A stretch of 64,000 bases of DNA from an uncultured archaeon (lineage in GTDB: Archaea > Asgardarchaeota > Lokiarchaeia > Sigyniarchaeales > SOKP01), in the NCBI GenBank assembly GCA_964583985.1, contig CAZOYD010000002.1, positions 1 through 64,000 on the forward strand, read 5' to 3'. The notes under the pieces are model-generated. The model was not told where the DNA came from. It did not search any database and saw only the letters and a program-made list of their open reading frames with translations. The translations under genes were made by a program, and so were the position numbers. Shown here piece after piece: positions 5,174-13,204 of the stretch (position 1 is the first letter of the stretch; every line of letters begins with the position of its first letter).

Positions 5174-6317
5174 GTTTTCGATATTGTTTTAATTGCACGT
5201 AAAATAAGGGGTGTTGGATCTTTTTCTGAGAATTATTTTTTTTAGAAAAATACCCTTCCAAGCATAACTCATCATTATATTGCTTTGCCATGCAGAGGCT
5301 ATATGATTTTAATGTAGAACAAGAGTGGGGTGAATATTCCTTCTTTTTGGCAAATTGCACCTGATATTCCGTTTTCTTTCTATCAAAATCGGGTAATTGT
5401 GCAAACAAGTTTACAATCTCATCAATTGGAATTTCTAAAGAATGTAAAAAGAAAACAAGAAATAATCTTTCAATATGAGTTATATTTTGTCCTTGATCAA
5501 TCTTTAAAAGGATTTCGGCAACGCAAGGAGGAAAACTTTCTTCTACTTTTTCTCCTTTTTTATACTTAATTTCAAATGAAAATTCAAATTCTTCCTTCTT
5601 TAACTCCCATTCACCCAGAATTCTCTCGTTGAGTTCTCTGATTTCTTCGACTTGTAAAGCTCTTTTCGTAAAAGCTTCTAAACTGGCAAGATCTTTCTCT
5701 TGTTGAATTATTATCTTTTTTCTTATGACCTCTTGTAATAGACGAATTAAATCTTTTTTTTCAATCAGCACATATCCTTCAACTAAAGGGTTATGAACGA
5801 GCTTTCGATAATCATCTCTTAAATTAGATGCAAGCCGAAGGTAATCAATATAATGAATGCTGAATTGTGTTTGAAGCACTTGCTTTCCATTCTTATCTAA
5901 AATTAATCCAAAAGGAACTGGTTTATCGTAATATTTAATATCTAATTCCAAATCTTTACAAATAGAAAATAAATCGGAATCATTATTTTCTTTGATCATT
6001 TTATGATACATGTGTTTAGAATATAGGTTAGCAACTCTATTTGCAATTGGTATGCTATTATTCAGGTAAAGTAGAATTTTTAAAATGGTATAAAGAGAGA
6101 CGTTCAGCTCGTCTGCTTTATAATTTTTTATTTCTTCTAGGTTTTCAAAAGCGGTTTTAAATATACTAAAAATTCGATCCACTAATTCCCCATCGGGGTA
6201 TTCTGCTATTTTTTCCTTGATAAATTCCACAGGATCTTTTTCAGTCATCTCCGAATAATAAATATTCTTAGAAGGTAACCAAGGATAGTGTTTTATTAAC
6301 TCGTATGAGATGTCCAA
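5130..6317 (-). CDS. priL: DNA primase large subunit PriL
   Basis: YPW N-terminus, FPPC, HIER, Fe-S cysteines in YSPHSCSTLKSYSLC...C, HPL; overlaps priS. Confidence 0.93.
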   Translation of the reverse strand: MDISYELIKHYPWLPSKNIYYSEMTEKDPVEFIKEKIAEYPDGELVDRIFSIFKTAFENLEEIKNYKADELNVSLYTILKILLYLNNSIPIANRVANLYSKHMYHKMIKENNDSDLFSICKDLELDIKYYDKPVPFGLILDKNGKQVLQTQFSIHYIDYLRLASNLRDDYRKLVHNPLVEGYVLIEKKDLIRLLQEVIRKKIIIQQEKDLASLEAFTKRALQVEEIRELNERILGEWELKKEEFEFSFEIKYKKGEKVEESFPPCVAEILLKIDQGQNITHIERLFLVFFLHSLEIPIDEIVNLFAQLPDFDRKKTEYQVQFAKKKEYSPHSCSTLKSYSLCMAKQYNDELCLEGYFSKKNNSQKKIQHPLFYVQLKQYRKHGPKEEVKPKKKIE

Positions 6318-6785
6318 ATCAACATCGACTCCTTTTGAATTGTTCCTTCATCATGGTATGAAAAAATAAAGCAGATAAATAAGTAAATACTGAATAAAAT
6401 TTCTAAATAAATGTGTAATTACGATAAATAAATTAAAAAAATGTCTTGGAAATTTCAACGTACAACGCATTCTTTGATAGTCTTTTATTTTTTTACGATA
6501 ATTAAATTAAAAAATGAATGTTAAAATAAATGTAAAAAGTTTTCTACTGAGATTATCAAATAGAAAATAATAAATAACTAAAATAGTAAAATGAGATATA
6601 AAACAGAAATTTCCTTATCTCTTAAAATGAATAAAAAACAGTAAATATTTGAAAACCATAAGAAAAAATACCAGATTTTTTCTTAAGTAGAGAATAAAAA
6701 GTAATACTCATTCAGCGTCTCTCTTGGAAATTTTTATATACGTAATTATTCTAGTAGTACTTAACCAAAATCAAAATCAATTTTA

Positions 6786-8471
6786 TTGATAAAAATGAAA
6801 GAAGATATCAAATACTTATTACTTTCAGTTTTAATCTTTCCTATACTATTAATCATTGGGTTGAGTGTCTCATTTATGATATCGAGATTCATGCCTGGAG
6901 ATCCAGTTTTAGCATATCTTCCGGAGGGAACATTCACCATGACACAGTATCTACAAATGAAAGAAATCTTGGGGCTCAATGATCCCCTTATAATACAATT
7001 TATTAGATATTCACTAAACATGCTTTCTGGTAACTGGGGACTATCACTATCAATTGCACACTCTACACCAGTATTAGAATTAGTTTCACAAACGTTTCCT
7101 CGCACTTTAGATCTTTTATTTCTCCCATTATTAGTAAGCTTAGTGATAGGATATTATATTGGCAAGATCTCATTAAAAAGAACCGAATTAACAAATAGAG
7201 TGATTCAAATTGTTTCACTCCTGATTCTTGCTATACCAATAATGATAATCGGGATTGGATTTCAATTCTTTTTAGGTGGTATGTTTCCAATTTCTGGATA
7301 CAAAACTGTAGGGTCGGATGATCCCCCTTTTGTTTCTGGATTCCGTATAATTGACTCGATGTTATCAGGACAGTCGTACATTATCTCTGATTATTTATAT
7401 CATTTGATTTTACCTTGGATTACGTTAACGATTGTATTAGTTCCGCTCATAATTTTTCTCACTAGATCATATTTTTTAAACAGAAGATCTGAGCCCAGTT
7501 TACATCTTAAGTACCCCGTCGCCTCAATCTTGGCCACTGTCGCATTAGGTTATGGAATGGTAATGTCATTCACATTTTTGGTTGAAGGGATTTTTGGATT
7601 AAATGGATTTGGTCAATTATTAATCGCCGCAATTCATAACTCTGATAATTGGGTACTTAATATATTTGGGTTCATTTTTCCTCTAATTTTCACTTTCTTA
7701 ATATCCGGAAGCATGCTCCTGCTCACATTATACAGTTATATCAAGGGTGATCGTACAAATAATTTTAAATCAAATGAAATGGAAAGGAAAGAAAAAGATA
7801 TAACAGTTAAAAACGATAAACTCCGAAGTTTATATTTCCAGAACTTTAAAACTGATATACATGACCTTGGAAAAGACTTACTCGTAAAATTGAAATTGCC
7901 TTATACAATTATTGGGCTAGGAATAACAATTTTCGCAGTTATATTATATTTTATATTTGCATTACCAATCTCACTCATTTCGGTCTTTGTCTTTATTAGC
8001 GTAAGCTATGGTTTAATTGGAGGTTTAATTATTGGTTCTTTATTTAATCTGGTGAGAAATCGATATAAACGATCATTAGATGGCATGTTGATTCCGTTTT
8101 TCATGTATCCCATAATATTTACTGGATTTTTTAGTAGTTTAATCTTTATTCCATTTTTAGACATGGGAATGCAATATTTATTTATGGAATCAATCTATGG
8201 GATGATGCTAATACCAATCTTTGCGTTAATCATTACAAAAGCTAAATTTAATTTCGTAGCGATTTTGAAACAATTAATACCTTACATTCCGCTCATGATG
8301 GGATTCGTTTTAACAATAGATACGTATTTAGGATTTTTAGTATATTCTAGCACTATTCTTGGGGGTGATTTTTATATAGCACTTTTCATATTACTGTTGG
8401 GTTTTTACCTTCTTTATGTGGGATTAAGTCAGATTCCAAGAGAAATTCAAGAAATTAAGAGCGACATTTAA
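6786..8471 (+). CDS. Orphan peptide/nickel ABC transporter permease (DppB-like N-half fused to a second hydrophobic region)
   Basis: MPGDP, GLNDPLIIQF..Y..GNWGLS, HLILP, VEGIFGLNGFGQL motifs of DppB/OppB; ~220 further hydrophobic residues. Confidence 0.75.
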   Translation: MIKMKEDIKYLLLSVLIFPILLIIGLSVSFMISRFMPGDPVLAYLPEGTFTMTQYLQMKEILGLNDPLIIQFIRYSLNMLSGNWGLSLSIAHSTPVLELVSQTFPRTLDLLFLPLLVSLVIGYYIGKISLKRTELTNRVIQIVSLLILAIPIMIIGIGFQFFLGGMFPISGYKTVGSDDPPFVSGFRIIDSMLSGQSYIISDYLYHLILPWITLTIVLVPLIIFLTRSYFLNRRSEPSLHLKYPVASILATVALGYGMVMSFTFLVEGIFGLNGFGQLLIAAIHNSDNWVLNIFGFIFPLIFTFLISGSMLLLTLYSYIKGDRTNNFKSNEMERKEKDITVKNDKLRSLYFQNFKTDIHDLGKDLLVKLKLPYTIIGLGITIFAVILYFIFALPISLISVFVFISVSYGLIGGLIIGSLFNLVRNRYKRSLDGMLIPFFMYPIIFTGFFSSLIFIPFLDMGMQYLFMESIYGMMLIPIFALIITKAKFNFVAILKQLIPYIPLMMGFVLTIDTYLGFLVYSSTILGGDFYIALFILLLGFYLLYVGLSQIPREIQEIKSDI

Positions 8472-8763
8472 ATTATTTTTTTTTTACTTTTTTGAAAAAG
8501 GATCTTTTATGATTCAGTATCACACGTAACTTATATAAGAACGAGAAATTCTGCTATAGCTTCGATTGAAACTAGGAATACCGAATGAGGTAAAATCACC
8601 CCAAATAAAAATGATGGATATATAGAATATGAGATTTTAAGGGGGTGGCTTCTAATCATTCTATTTTTTCTAAATTTTCAAAAAAAATGTGATGGTCTAT
8701 ATCATAAAGAACTTATAGGATAGAAAAAAAGGGATCTTAAAATTTCTAAATAAATGATTTTGG

Positions 8764-8992
8764 CTAAAAATCATCCACGTCCTCATTGTCATCTTCATCT
8801 TCTTCATGTTCGACTCTTGGTGCCAGAAATAGTGATAATTCACAATCGTTTTCCAATTTAAAAATGATTTTTAGAGGGTAATCCGATTTTAAGCCCATTT
8901 CTAAATTCATGGTGATTGATGATATTTTCAGGATGGCTTTTAAGAACTCGAGATTATAGGAGCCAATGCAAGTCTCATTAATATTGTTAGAA
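8764..8992 (-). pseudogene. Duplicated 3' end of the PCNA gene (direct repeat of 12389-12617)
   Basis: Manual alignment: ~229 bp, 10 mismatches, perfect core ~8798-8946. Encodes SNNINETCIGSYNLEFLK...EDVDDF* with no in-frame start upstream of the homology. Confidence 0.93.
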
Positions 8993-9160
8993 GGTATGTG
9001 AGAGAAGTAAGATTTTAGCTTTATTAAAATTTAGACTGATTCAAATTTGTAATTAAATCGGACCTTTTTAAAGCTTTCATAATAATCTGGGACTAAACTC
9101 ATAAAAAATTGGAAGATAATATCCTTTTTTCAGATTATTTTAGATGAAAGTGATTTCACT

Positions 9161-10771
9161 TCATTTAAGTATTTTTGTCAATCTTAAGAGATATTCACCG
9201 TGAGAGATTTGTTTGGATTTTAATTCTTCAGAGAGTTCCTTCAATTGTGTTAAATTTTCCATTAGATCCTCTCTAAATTCCACGGATTCAAATAATTCTC
9301 CAATGATTGATTTCACATTTTCTCTTTCAGCATCAATTTTTCTCTCCTCTACATTCAGTAAGTCAAAATCTCGCTTATATTGTTTAATGTACTCATAAAG
9401 ATTTAGGCAAAAAGCGTCCATTTTTTCAGTTTCACCGTCAAATTCAAAGCCGAGCTTATCACTTAAATCAAAATAACTGTATCCTCCCCCATTCAAGTCG
9501 ATTTGTTTTAAATCTTCAAATCCAATGTCAGTTCCTTTTATTGGAATGATCTTAATACCATTGGTCAAGGCTAAAACGAGCTCATGCCGACTCTGAATAT
9601 CAGTAATCGAACTATTAGTAGCAATGAATAATAATAGATGGCTATCAGAAACGTCATTCTCTCCGCTACTATACACGTCAAGAATCTCTTCTTGTTCTTT
9701 TAATCTTTTCTTGAGGCCATTCACATTATATTTATTTTTATCATCTTTCGAATGGCTGATAAAAATTATAATAGGCGTTTTTCCTCTGCAAAACTTTAGG
9801 ATTGCGGGAGTATCTAAATTTGTTATATCCTTCCATTCATCATCCCACGGGTTGCCATACAAATGAGTATAATTTAGATTCTTACATCTCCCAAAGGAAA
9901 GCGGGAGAGATGACAACTGATTATAACCTATACTTAGTCTTTGGAGAAAGGAGAGGTCACCTATCGACTCCGGAAGAAATGTTAAATTATTCTTACTCAA
10001 ATGAAGTATTTTAAGTGATTTTACGAGACCTATCGCCTCGGGGAGAGTCTTTAAATTGTTATTTTCCATTTCTATGCTTTCGAGAGCTTTTAGCTTTGTT
10101 ATTGACTCCGGAAGAGAAGTGAATTGATTATTCTCTAAATCAAGTTTCTTAAGCGAGGAGAGGTTCCCTATAGAATCCGGTAGAGTTTTTAACTTATTAT
10201 TCTTCAAATTAAGTTCCTTAAGCGAGGAGAGGTTCCCTATGGAATTCGGGAGAATAGTCAACTGGTTATCATATAAATATAGATCCTGTAGCAATTTTAA
10301 ATCCTCTATTGATTCTTGGATATTTCTTAAATAATTACCACTCACCAATAACCGCTCAAGTGATGTTAGCTTTTTTATTGATTCTGGGAGATTTGTTAGC
10401 TTATTGTTACTCAAACCAAGATATTGAAGAGAAGTAAGATTACCTATTGACTCGGAGAGAGTTACTAACTGATTATCAAGAAGTACTAAACTTTCTAGTG
10501 ATTTCAGGTCCCATAATGACTCCGGGAGAGTAAGAAAATTATTTTTCCTTAAACCAAGATATGTGAGGTTGGAGAGATTACTTATCGATTCGGGGAGAGT
10601 CCTCAATCCTTGATTGAAGAGGAATAATCCAACAATGTTATCTCCTTCAACTTTATACCCAAAAATGTCCCATTTAATCTCTTCTATTTGTGGAATGGGT
10701 TTACCTATTATCTTTTCCAATTCTATCAAACATTTCGCTTGTTCGCGCTTTACATTGGATTTTGTTGTCAT
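9161..10771 (-). CDS. LRR-TIR protein 1 (about 11 LRRs + TIR-like domain + helical tail)
   Basis: 23-aa repeats LPESIGNLxxLxxLxLxxNxL, then IIIFISHS...LLLFIATNSS..SRHELVLA...IIPI. Confidence 0.85.
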   Translation of the reverse strand: MTTKSNVKREQAKCLIELEKIIGKPIPQIEEIKWDIFGYKVEGDNIVGLFLFNQGLRTLPESISNLSNLTYLGLRKNNFLTLPESLWDLKSLESLVLLDNQLVTLSESIGNLTSLQYLGLSNNKLTNLPESIKKLTSLERLLVSGNYLRNIQESIEDLKLLQDLYLYDNQLTILPNSIGNLSSLKELNLKNNKLKTLPDSIGNLSSLKKLDLENNQFTSLPESITKLKALESIEMENNNLKTLPEAIGLVKSLKILHLSKNNLTFLPESIGDLSFLQRLSIGYNQLSSLPLSFGRCKNLNYTHLYGNPWDDEWKDITNLDTPAILKFCRGKTPIIIFISHSKDDKNKYNVNGLKKRLKEQEEILDVYSSGENDVSDSHLLLFIATNSSITDIQSRHELVLALTNGIKIIPIKGTDIGFEDLKQIDLNGGGYSYFDLSDKLGFEFDGETEKMDAFCLNLYEYIKQYKRDFDLLNVEERKIDAERENVKSIIGELFESVEFREDLMENLTQLKELSEELKSKQISHGEYLLRLTKILK

Positions 10772-11128
10772 TGATTTTCTCTGCTCCTGAATTTCTTTTT
10801 CATTAAAAAGCTCTTTCTCGAGACTTAAATGGTGTTTTTAAGAATTTTAATGTTATAATTTTTCTTTAAAATTTAAGGTTATGGATCTTAAATCCTGAAT
10901 AGCAGAAATTTTCGGTAATGCTTAAAATTAGCTTCTGGAAACAGATACGCCTTCTCATTAGATAAAACCAAAATTTTTAAAGTGTTTCTGTTTTTTTATT
11001 ATTTCATGCCGGAAAGAAAAAAACAAATTCCTCAAAATTATCATATAAAATCTGAAAAAGCTCAAGCTTTTGAGGATTTAAGCAAACTTATAGGTAAACC
11101 CATTCCACAAATAGAAGAGATTAAATGG
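10670..11128. repeat. Perfect 39-bp inverted repeat (10670-10708 / 11090-11128) in the 5' ends of the two LRR-TIR genes
   Basis: ataggtaaacccattccacaaatagaagagattaaatgg present on both strands (IGKPIPQIEEIKW in both proteins). Confidence 0.9.
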
Positions 11129-12316
11129 AACACATTCGGAATTAAATATGAAGGAGGTAATTTAGTTGGATTAAATTTATATAATCAAGGATTGACGACT
11201 CTCCCCGAGTCAATAGGCAATCTTACTTCTCTGACACATCTTAGATTGAATAATAATCAGTTAACAAATCTCCCCGAGTCAATAGGCAACTTAAAATCAC
11301 TAGAAATTCTTGATTTAAGTACTAATAAATTCACAACATTTCCGGAGGTTGTGTTGAATCTTAAATTTCTTAAACAATTAAGTTTACAGAATAATAGATT
11401 AACGACGCTCCCGGAATCCATTGGGAATCTCACATCACTTAGATACTTAATGGTACATGGAAATGAGTTAATAACTCTCCCTGAGTCGATAGGCAATCTT
11501 TCCTCTCTCGTTATCCTACATATATATATGAATAAATTAAGGAATTTACCTGAATCCTTTTCTCAATTGAAAAACTTGGAGGCTGCTTCTTTAGCAAAAA
11601 ATGATTGGAAGGGAGAATGGCAAGAATTATCATCAAATGACGTTCCAAAAATTTTGAAGCTCTGTCGAAAATTACACGGGATTGATATTTTTATCAGTCA
11701 CGCTATGATAGATCAAGAAGAGTATCCAATCATTGAGCTCAATAAAAATTTGGAGAAATGTGAAGAAGTCCATAACGTGCATCTCTGTGAGGAAGATTTA
11801 AGAGATAGCATAAAAGCTTTTATGGATAATAACGTTCCTAAAAGCCAATTATTGATATTCATTGGTACGAAGAATTCCCTCAATTCTAAAGATTGTCTAT
11901 ACGAACTCTCATTAGCAAAAAAATTCAGCATTAAGATTTTACCTATCAGAGGAAATGACATATCTGTGGAAGATTTAAAGCAAATTGATTTGAGAGAGCA
12001 CGAGCAAGATTTTTTAGATTTAAGTATATTGAATGTTTTTGAATTCAATACTGAAGTTTTCGATAAGCTCCATGAGTATATTTCGAGCCATCAATCTGAA
12101 TTGAAAATGTTTAAAAAAGAACAAGAAAAACTTGAAGATGAGAAATCAAATATGTGGAAAAATCTCATGGATTTCGCAGATTCTAATGAATTTACGGAAC
12201 AATTAAAAGATAATTTCGAAGAATTCCAAAAGATTTTTCAAGATGTAAGGAACGATCGAATTACTAATTTAGAATATATTTTGAAATTAGGACAAATTAT
12301 TAGTAAAAACAATTGA
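10982..12316 (+). CDS. LRR-TIR protein 2 (about 6 LRRs + TIR domain + helical tail; likely start ATG 11006)
   Basis: LPESIGNL repeats, then IDIFISHA...LLIFIGTKNSLNSKDCLYELSLA...ILPI. Confidence 0.87.
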   Translation: MFLFFYYFMPERKKQIPQNYHIKSEKAQAFEDLSKLIGKPIPQIEEIKWNTFGIKYEGGNLVGLNLYNQGLTTLPESIGNLTSLTHLRLNNNQLTNLPESIGNLKSLEILDLSTNKFTTFPEVVLNLKFLKQLSLQNNRLTTLPESIGNLTSLRYLMVHGNELITLPESIGNLSSLVILHIYMNKLRNLPESFSQLKNLEAASLAKNDWKGEWQELSSNDVPKILKLCRKLHGIDIFISHAMIDQEEYPIIELNKNLEKCEEVHNVHLCEEDLRDSIKAFMDNNVPKSQLLIFIGTKNSLNSKDCLYELSLAKKFSIKILPIRGNDISVEDLKQIDLREHEQDFLDLSILNVFEFNTEVFDKLHEYISSHQSELKMFKKEQEKLEDEKSNMWKNLMDFADSNEFTEQLKDNFEEFQKIFQDVRNDRITNLEYILKLGQIISKNN

Positions 12317-12388: not shown

Positions 12389-13204
12389 TTAAAAATCATC
12401 CATGTCCTCATTGTCATCTTCGTCTTCTTCATGTTCGACTCTTGGTGCCAGAAATAGTGATAATTCACAATCGTTTTCCAATTTAAAAATGATTTTTAGA
12501 GGGTAATCCGATTTTAAGCCCATTTCTAAATTCATGGTGATTGATGATATTTTCAGGATGGCTTTTAAGAAATCGAGACTGTAGGAGCCCATGCAGGTTT
12601 CATTAATATTGCTAGAACGTAAATCTTCAAGATCGAGAAAATACTCCATTTCACCTATCGTTCCTATTGAGGAGAACAAGAGTCCTTCTCCTTCAGTAGC
12701 CTTTAAACTTAGCACTTCTGAGTAAATCTCCGCGTCTTTTATCGCTTCTACTAAAAATGCAGGTTCTATTTCCCAGTTAGTATTATATTCTATTTCATAT
12801 AATCTATCCAAGTGAAGATTTTCAATTTCGTTTTCTGAAAGTGCTAAACTAAAAGTACGCGTCAATTTTTTCTCTTCATCGGTTGTGCGTTGCAATTTTA
12901 TTTTTATTTTGTTATCTGCTTCCTTGAATGCTATTTCAAGCGAATCATTTAAAGTACTCCTCTTGAGGATCTTATCCAAATCATCTATATTTAGATCGAT
13001 ATCCAATTTCTTATCGCAAGAAAATTCATCGAAATCTTCCCCCTTGATCTTAAGCTGTAACAAACAAATACGACTATCGTCAAACGCAAGTATCGTTAAT
13101 CCCTTAGGGGTGATCTTGAACTTAGCCTCAGTGACAATACTCGCGAGAGTTTCGATAATGACTCTTAAGACCCGACTTTTATCTAATTTTAACGAAAATG
13201 ACAT
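12389..13204 (-). CDS. pcn: DNA polymerase sliding clamp PCNA with acidic tail
   Basis: AFDDSRICL, DLDKILKR, YSLDFL, DYPLKI, FLAPRVE motifs. Confidence 0.95.
   Translation of the reverse strand: MSFSLKLDKSRVLRVIIETLASIVTEAKFKITPKGLTILAFDDSRICLLQLKIKGEDFDEFSCDKKLDIDLNIDDLDKILKRSTLNDSLEIAFKEADNKIKIKLQRTTDEEKKLTRTFSLALSENEIENLHLDRLYEIEYNTNWEIEPAFLVEAIKDAEIYSEVLSLKATEGEGLLFSSIGTIGEMEYFLDLEDLRSSNINETCMGSYSLDFLKAILKISSITMNLEMGLKSDYPLKIIFKLENDCELSLFLAPRVEHEEDEDDNEDMDDF

Follow-up and report, generated by a model that had tools for sequence, protein, structure and literature searches.

Why would an archaeon keep side by side two related leucine-rich repeat (LRR) proteins that both end in a Toll/interleukin-1 receptor (TIR)-like domain, one of them lacking part of that domain? 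The question is raised by two divergently transcribed genes in a 64,000-nucleotide stretch (the window; positions 1 to 64,000 of contig CAZOYD010000002.1, assembly GCA_964583985.1) from an uncultured Asgard archaeon of the Sigyniarchaeales. A sequence-only reading of the window had proposed a soluble pair without a nucleotide-binding (NB) domain, with different specificities or with one regulatory partner, acting in antiviral defence. We found that the two proteins, here called type A and type B, represent sister clades whose genes stay together, and that this linkage is well supported. Since adjacency, the sister-clade relationship, a natural fusion and a passing complex model all agree, we regard the pair as a co-inherited unit with two unequal TIR domains. 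Such a unit fits the regulatory-partner version of the proposal better than two independent receptors. The broader reading, in which the two genes belong to an Asgard-centred LRR-TIR-tail family and encode the two halves of a single soluble receptor without an NTPase, working by the mechanism outlined in the Discussion, has in our estimate a probability of about 50%.

Results

A loop-deleted and a complete TIR protein remain neighbours

The products of the two genes, P0001 (type A) and P0002 (type B), are paralogues (41% identity over 383 aa, E=2e-84). Between strands B and C of the TIR domain, P0001 is 11 residues shorter than P0002, a deficit that falls on the BB loop and helix αB and had been put at about 10 residues in the sequence-only reading. 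The deletion is present in all members of the type A clade (27 tips, FastTree support 0.96), and the TIR domain is complete in all members of the type B clade (28 tips, support 1.0). The two are sister clades, in both of which paired genes group congruently; the type A clade was re-tested from its original members after more loci had been added. The deletion alone failed as a clade marker, similar deletions being found outside type A.

In seven of eight distinct genomic contexts, the type A gene is adjoined by a family member with a complete TIR, which bears out the expectation that the pairing would recur in other genomes. The paired genes are divergent in the window and in L014, L018, L019 and L023, tandem in L020 and convergent in L022. 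It is adjacency that is conserved, and not the head-to-head orientation. Type A and type B proteins are only 37–41% identical, and yet their adjacency persists across lineages, orientations and contexts. Moreover, both types occur whole within a single continuous open reading frame (ORF) of 1298 codons, P0013, read on six contigs, where a type B part made up of TPR, cap, LRR, TIR and tail is fused to a type A part made up of cap, LRR, loop-deleted TIR and tail. Comparable arrangements are found outside the two clades. In G034, a deletion gene without the glutamate (Glu) at the catalytic position (see below) lies between two complete members; in G023, a gene with a 7-residue deletion and without this Glu lies beside a complete member; and P0026 and P0123 each combine, in one fused protein, a complete TIR and a TIR without the Glu. 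The pairing of a complete with a reduced TIR thus recurs beyond types A and B, both as neighbours and as fusions.

Species representatives of the same genus carry relatives that are about 38% identical, non-syntenic and partnerless, which seemed to count against a conserved pair; the conserved pair was reinstated because closer metagenomic relatives carry it. The source genome also encodes a 317-aa type A relative (L005, G000:C17:57503-58000) that keeps the deletion, has lost both the FISH motif (see below) and the Glu, and may be decaying.

These data bear directly on the possibility that the two genes are tandem duplicates whose products form homodimers with different ligands, their adjacency reflecting nothing but origin. 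Family members do frequently occur in local clusters, single-copy members exist as well (L003, L006-L008), and the complex model described next is compatible with homodimers. However, independent receptors would have to have remained adjacent at 37–41% identity through changes of orientation and context, to have grouped congruently in the tree and to have become fused in P0013, and a loop-deleted gene hardly ever occurs without a complete-TIR gene beside it. We therefore consider two independent receptors quite improbable.

The helical tails are predicted to bind each other

We predicted the complex of the TIR-plus-tail modules of types B and A, each supplied with its own alignment. The scores were 0.81, 0.72 and 0.82, the best of three controls reaching 0.00, so that the heterocomplex suggested for modelling passes (0.81 against 0.00). 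The score mark is reached by 58 of 80 solved complexes and by 2 of 110 mismatched pairs, counts that give only a rough calibration because custom alignments were used. Contact agreement among the runs was at least 90%, and the predicted local distance difference test (pLDDT) of the partner was at least 77. The modelled interface is nearly all tail–tail (residue ranges in Table 1) and takes in a few residues of type B αB and αC. The model supports binding through a predicted heterodimeric helical bundle of the two tails.

Crude ratios of nonsynonymous to synonymous substitution rates (dN/dS) were computed by region for the window pair against three orthologous pairs. For the TIR domain they are 0.15–0.24 in type B and 0.30–0.43 in type A; for the LRRs they are 0.27–0.41, with synonymous sites saturated and repeat alignment unreliable. 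The earlier proposal had looked to dN/dS on the LRRs; at this crude level, positive selection was found neither there nor in any other region. Every region of both genes is under purifying selection, and neither gene is decaying. The number of LRRs varies even among close orthologues (about 8–11 in type A and about 6–14 in type B).

Both the tail–tail model and the unequal constraint on the two TIRs would also suit a division of labour between guard and executor. A type B homo-oligomer would cleave nicotinamide adenine dinucleotide (NAD+) on its own, and type A would be a dedicated negative regulator, binding type B by its tail and capping TIR assembly until its own LRR senses a trigger. A precedent is known from plants, where RRS1 holds RPS4 in check. 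The BB loop that type A lacks is needed to extend a TIR chain (PMC9153377), the type A TIR is the less constrained one, and reduced partners from other lineages have lost both the Glu and the FISH motif as well, as expected of a non-catalytic regulator. Type A itself, however, retains Glu or Asp as well as the FISH motif under purifying selection, and a stable covalent fusion of B to A would sit badly with an inhibitor whose release is required. On balance, we think it unlikely that type A acts purely as such an inhibitor.

Both C-terminal domains are predicted TIR folds

P0002 matches Pfam TIR_2 (PF13676) with 34.3 bits (cut-off 28) and Pfam TIR with only 15.6 bits; the complete-TIR partners in L020 and L022 match TIR_2 with 28.5 and 29.3 bits. 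For P0001, Pfam gives no TIR match at E≤1, and its type A relatives P0160-P0166 and P0064 likewise have no precomputed TIR match. AlphaFold2 models of the junction-TIR-tail modules have a mean pLDDT of 83 (P0002) and 79 (P0001). In the latter, strands A–D and helix αC are present, and a short turn replaces the BB loop and helix αB. When the models were compared with the PDB using Foldseek, the top matches for both were TIR domains, and the matches include RPS4/RRS1, Roq1, MyD88, AbTir, BtpA, SPARTA TIR-APAZ and SARM1. AbTir is matched with a TMt of 0.75 by P0002 and 0.68 by P0001, for which it is the best match. Thus, pLDDT and Foldseek indicate that both C-terminal domains, described earlier as TIR-like, are TIR folds, even though TIR_2 recognises type B only.

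When 49 diverse TIRs of the family were combined into one profile, it matched Cat1 (E=0.0018) and Caenorhabditis elegans TIR-1 (E=0.0067) and, weakly, the TIRs of the Toll-like receptors TLR6, TLR2 and TLR1. The broader profile was needed, as a 12-sequence profile searched against the PDB had given only weak TIR matches along with a chance match between the tail and designed helical bundles. E308 of P0002 and E397 of P0001 align with the Glu of the C-x-x-E-L helix in Cat1, TIR-1 and TLR6, so the residue singled out in the sequence-only reading does sit at the catalytic position of NAD+-cleaving TIRs (NADases). Across the family, this position is Glu in 131 of 136 modules; type A members have Glu (22 of 26) or Asp (4 of 26). 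The residue four positions earlier (Glu-4), Trp in Cat1, TIR-1 and TLRs, is instead Asp in P0002 and Gln in P0001, with Asp the commonest in the family (69 of 136 modules). In NADase-type TIRs the BB loop inserts under the αD/αE surface of a neighbour; type B has both this loop and αB, and type A has neither.

Layout of the gene pair

Much of what had been read from the sequence about the two genes held up. The layout of two divergent paralogues, each with an N-terminal cap, an LRR array, a TIR-like domain and a helical tail, was confirmed by the ORFs, the 41% identity, Pfam and AlphaFold2 (Table 1). The LRR counts of about 11 and 6 agree with arrays of 258 and 150 aa, the repeat unit in both genes being 69 nt (23 aa), and Pfam LRR matches are strong in both proteins (LRR_8 and LRR_14 in P0001). 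All of the quoted motifs are present: FISHA at residue 237 of P0002, which corresponds to FISHS at residue 337 of P0001, the CLYEL helix and the SRHEL Glu. The helical tail is indeed conserved, between P0001 and P0002 as well as among their relatives. As to the proteins being soluble and NB-less, the LRR-to-TIR junction is polar, neither protein has a membrane-spanning segment (maximum 19-aa Kyte-Doolittle means of 1.12 and 1.36 for P0001 and P0002), and Pfam finds only LRR, TIR and coiled-coil-like matches, with no NTPase domain in either.

In the spacer, an A/T-rich, TATA-like stretch can be read about 30 nt ahead of each start codon. We favour the ATG at 11006 as the start of type B because it fits the TATA-like stretch about 30 nt upstream; a start at the GTG at 10982 would add a hydrophobic 8-residue extension. 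A promoter and terminator scan was set aside, its bacterial-type model doing no better than on shuffled sequences.

Table 1. Coordinates of the gene pair, its parts, the bracketing repeat and the SIR2_2 proteins of the same genome
Feature	Position	Strand	Description and basis
Type A gene (P0001, 536 aa)	9161-10771	-	Cap, ~11 LRRs, TIR without BB loop and helix αB, helical tail
Type A N-terminal cap, residues 1-48	10628-10771	-	Kept in type B and orthologues
Type A LRR array, residues 49-306 (258 aa)	9854-10627	-	~11 units of 23 aa; Pfam, 69-nt periodicity, motif count
Type A TIR domain, residues 331-447	9431-9781	-
Type A 11-residue deletion site	9641-9670	-
Type A E397	9581-9583	-	Catalytic-position Glu, SRHEL
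Type A helical tail, residues 448-536	9164-9430	-	Predicted dimer interface 478-536; AlphaFold2 helices, complex model
Divergent intergenic spacer, 234 bp	10772-11005	.	AT-rich; read from sequence
Type B gene (436 aa on record, P0003)	11006-12316	+	Cap, ~6 LRRs, complete TIR, helical tail
Type B longer ORF (P0002, 444 aa)	10982-12316	+	Opens at GTG
Type B LRR array, P0002 residues 57-206 (150 aa)	11150-11599	+	~6 units; Pfam, motif count
Type B TIR domain, P0002 residues 232-358	11675-12055	+
Type B BB loop and αB	11786-11851	+
Type B E308	11903-11905	+	Catalytic-position Glu, CLYEL
Type B helical tail, P0002 residues 359-444	12056-12313	+	Predicted dimer interface 383-441; AlphaFold2, complex model
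PCNA remnant, last 77 codons; direct-repeat copy 1	8765-8996	-	96% identical to 12390-12621
3' end of intact PCNA gene (12389-13204); direct-repeat copy 2	12390-12621	-
SIR2_2 proteins	G000:C55:17533-17931, C17:45712-46092, C133:2462-2830, C94:5959-6333

The wider family

An exhaustive search with the junction-TIR-tail profile returned 1012 cluster representatives at E≤1e-3; 170 of them reach E≤1e-30. Full coverage from the junction to the tail end is found in 104 of the 159 family proteins examined, and the helical tail is therefore part of the family definition. N-terminal parts are diverse (LRR alone, TPR plus LRR, WD40 plus LRR, beta-propellers), and no NTPase domain was found in the family proteins scanned. 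All members with a named source are Asgard (Promethearchaeota, Lokiarchaeota, Helarchaeota or Hermodarchaeota). At least one member is held by 31 of 40 related genomes, with 0 to 18 matches per genome; the source genome of the window has five.

The N-terminal parts of two members, P0155 (1515 aa, Helarchaeota) and P0158 (1047 aa), are of beta-propeller, LVIVD, TSP3 or glycosyl-hydrolase-like type, and such domains are often extracellular. A membrane helix between such parts and the TIR, if there is one, would give these two proteins a Toll-like topology.

Genomic setting and relocation

On either side of the pair stands a copy of the PCNA 3' end, a 232-nt direct repeat that begins exactly at the PCNA stop codon; one copy belongs to the intact gene and the other to a remnant, and a 48-aa ORF at 8764-8910 (minus strand) is one residue off the PCNA C-terminus. 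The orthologous pair in L014 lies in a different genomic place and is bracketed by a different repeat, of 248 nt and 82% identity (L014:4141-4388 and 7578-7825). This one is the 3' end of a UDP-glucose dehydrogenase gene, with a remnant encoding the last 85 residues at 74% identity. The order is alike at both sites: intact gene, type B, type A, remnant. The same geometry at both implies that the two genes relocated as one unit. No recombinase gene lies between the repeat copies, and a search for bracketing repeats at the pairs in L018, L020, L022 and L023 found none. Given the bracketing 3'-end repeats in two contexts, the variable LRR number and a copy number ranging from 0 to 18, we consider the pair accessory.

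Further direct repeats, of 86–101 nt, are present at L014:2832-2922/3676-3766, L020:756-856/3235-3335, L020:1668-1760/2184-2276 and, in the window, at 42926-43011/43347-43432. The repeats at L014:2832-2922 and L020:756-856 lie in or at a gene 3' end, and those at L014:2832-2922/3676-3766 flank two small unrelated ORFs. Each of the four pairs of copies encloses a small insert unrelated to the LRR-TIR genes. Such 3'-end duplication scars look like a general trait of these Asgard genomes and suggest that insertion or replacement of this kind is widespread in them.

The neighbouring genes encode GINS, the small and large primase subunits, a permease-like ORF, PCNA, an OB-fold protein and a TFS-like protein, as well as a GNAT acetyltransferase, aspartate carbamoyltransferase and an NrdD-like protein. 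The region 6302-9067 of the window, which includes the PCNA remnant, is missing from the syntenic contig L018; within it lies a 561-aa multi-pass membrane ORF (6786-8471) with a weak BPD_transp_1 match.

Discussion

How might two such unequal proteins work together? Only type B can supply a BB loop, and so the pair can be seen as a built-in asymmetric TIR assembly. In the mechanism that we propose, the LRR arrays would bind a trigger, most likely a product of a virus or mobile element. Binding would let the two TIRs, or the TIRs of several heterodimers, assemble head to tail, with type B as the loop donor and catalytic protomer and type A as the platform, acceptor or regulatory protomer. The assembly would then cleave NAD+, either depleting it or producing a signal, and growth of the infected cell would stop. 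We give NAD+ cleavage and antiviral defence roughly even odds. The most specific form of the mechanism, a tail-tethered asymmetric heterodimer in which type B gives both BB loop and active site and type A only an acceptor surface, is considerably more tentative. If it is true, two different LRR sensors would jointly gate one composite NAD+-cleaving site without a STAND NTPase. This would be an Asgard-specific form of TIR activation, apparently reinvented several times in the family and sometimes fixed as a fusion.

A number of observations weigh against this reading as a whole or against parts of it. On one hand, the partnership has exceptions: the type A gene in L021 has no partner, and neither has L005 on its contig. 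The complex model contains no TIR–TIR contact, and a homodimer may score equally well because the chains are paralogous and some rows are common to both alignments. Nor does a pure platform role account for the Glu that type A retains. On the other hand, enzymatic activity and a defence function may each be questioned. The Trp at Glu-4 is known from the SARM1 literature to be important for NAD+ binding, and with this residue replaced such binding is not assured. The TIRs of TLRs carry the catalytic-position Glu and yet are not NADases (PMC9153377). PADLOC matches type B only weakly to ThsB (E=7.5e-6) and type A not at all, the viral contigs scanned contain no relatives, and the pair is set among housekeeping (replication and metabolic) genes rather than in a defence island.

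Several of these points would also fit TIRs that are non-enzymatic assembly or adaptor modules of the TLR/MyD88 kind, perhaps not immune at all and part of a signalling network in which the many LRR proteins and small GTPases of Asgard archaea take part. The missing Trp, the housekeeping context and the presence of Glu-bearing, non-NADase TLR TIRs among the best sequence matches all suit such a scaffold, as do the size of the family and its many N-terminal repeat types. However, the profile finds its best matches in the NADases Cat1 and TIR-1, type B scores higher with the prokaryote-type Pfam family TIR_2 (34.3 bits) than with TIR (15.6 bits), and the Glu is nearly invariant over 136 modules. 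Furthermore, patchy copy number and relocation as a cassette suit a conflict system better than core signalling. A non-enzymatic role therefore seems to us doubtful, and a two-part NAD+-cleaving receptor remains the reading that we prefer.

Among known systems, the likeness to RPS4/RRS1, drawn already in the sequence-only reading, is a loose one. In both cases adjacent paralogous receptors (head-to-head in the window) combine LRRs with unequal TIRs and apparently form one unit, and the RPS4/RRS1 TIR heterodimer (4c6t) is the top Foldseek match for type B. The comparison stands as far as co-inheritance and the divergent arrangement in five contexts are concerned; it does not extend further, as tandem and convergent pairs exist too and orientation is not conserved. 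The Asgard pair has no NB-ARC or other STAND NTPase and no integrated decoy, and its domain order is LRR then TIR, in contrast to the plant order TIR-NB-LRR. Its modelled contact runs through the C-terminal helical tail, which plant NB-LRR receptors lack, and is not TIR–TIR. Without NB-ARC and decoy, the resemblance is functional rather than familial.

Proteins in which a TIR is joined to a repeat sensor form a recognised class (PMC9153377). With AbTir, SARM1/TIR-1, Cat1 and SPARTA TIR-APAZ the Asgard proteins share the fold and the position of the Glu. The family differs from the known repeat-sensor and NADase TIRs in having its own junction and helical tail, conserved in more than 100 representatives, in the replacement of the Glu-4 Trp, in a dedicated loop-less partner clade and in named members that are all Asgard. 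The Toll-like receptors resemble the pair in having an LRR array N-terminal to the TIR and in the C-x-x-E-L helix common to TLR6, TLR2 and TLR1 (weak matches). Unlike them, the Asgard pair has no signal peptide or membrane helix, and TIR_2 outscores TIR. Because LRRs and TIRs reportedly came to be combined on more than one occasion (PMC2858798), no ancestry shared with Toll-like receptors can be claimed.

The weak match of type B to ThsB is also the extent of the likeness to Thoeris, as ThsB proteins have neither the LRR array nor the tail of the Asgard pair. The pair does not belong to Thoeris, since there is no ThsA-type effector (SIR2/SLOG or Macro) in or beside the cassette; the genome does encode four proteins with the ThsA-effector domain type SIR2_2 (761–1849 aa; Table 1), none of them linked to the pair. 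Tad2 is a Thoeris anti-defence protein. A Tad2-like protein is reportedly encoded by an Asgard virus, with no complete Thoeris system predicted in the genomes of its predicted hosts (PMC13700489). Unrecognised TIR systems such as the Asgard LRR-TIR family are candidate targets of Tad2-like proteins. Surveys of Asgard defence make no mention of this family (PMC11291487, PMC13700489), and our literature searches found no description of an archaeal LRR-TIR family or of its pairing.

Overall, the pair belongs to the known "repeat sensor plus TIR" kind; the partnership of its two halves is well supported, and their biochemical role is what we infer. TIR enzymes are common to bacterial, plant and animal immunity, but their activation is less well understood where neither a STAND NTPase nor a filament-forming partner takes part. 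In Asgard archaea, the archaeal lineage closest to eukaryotes, complete and loop-less TIRs that are kept together, sometimes fused, and apparently tethered by their tails could show how asymmetric TIR assemblies are built.

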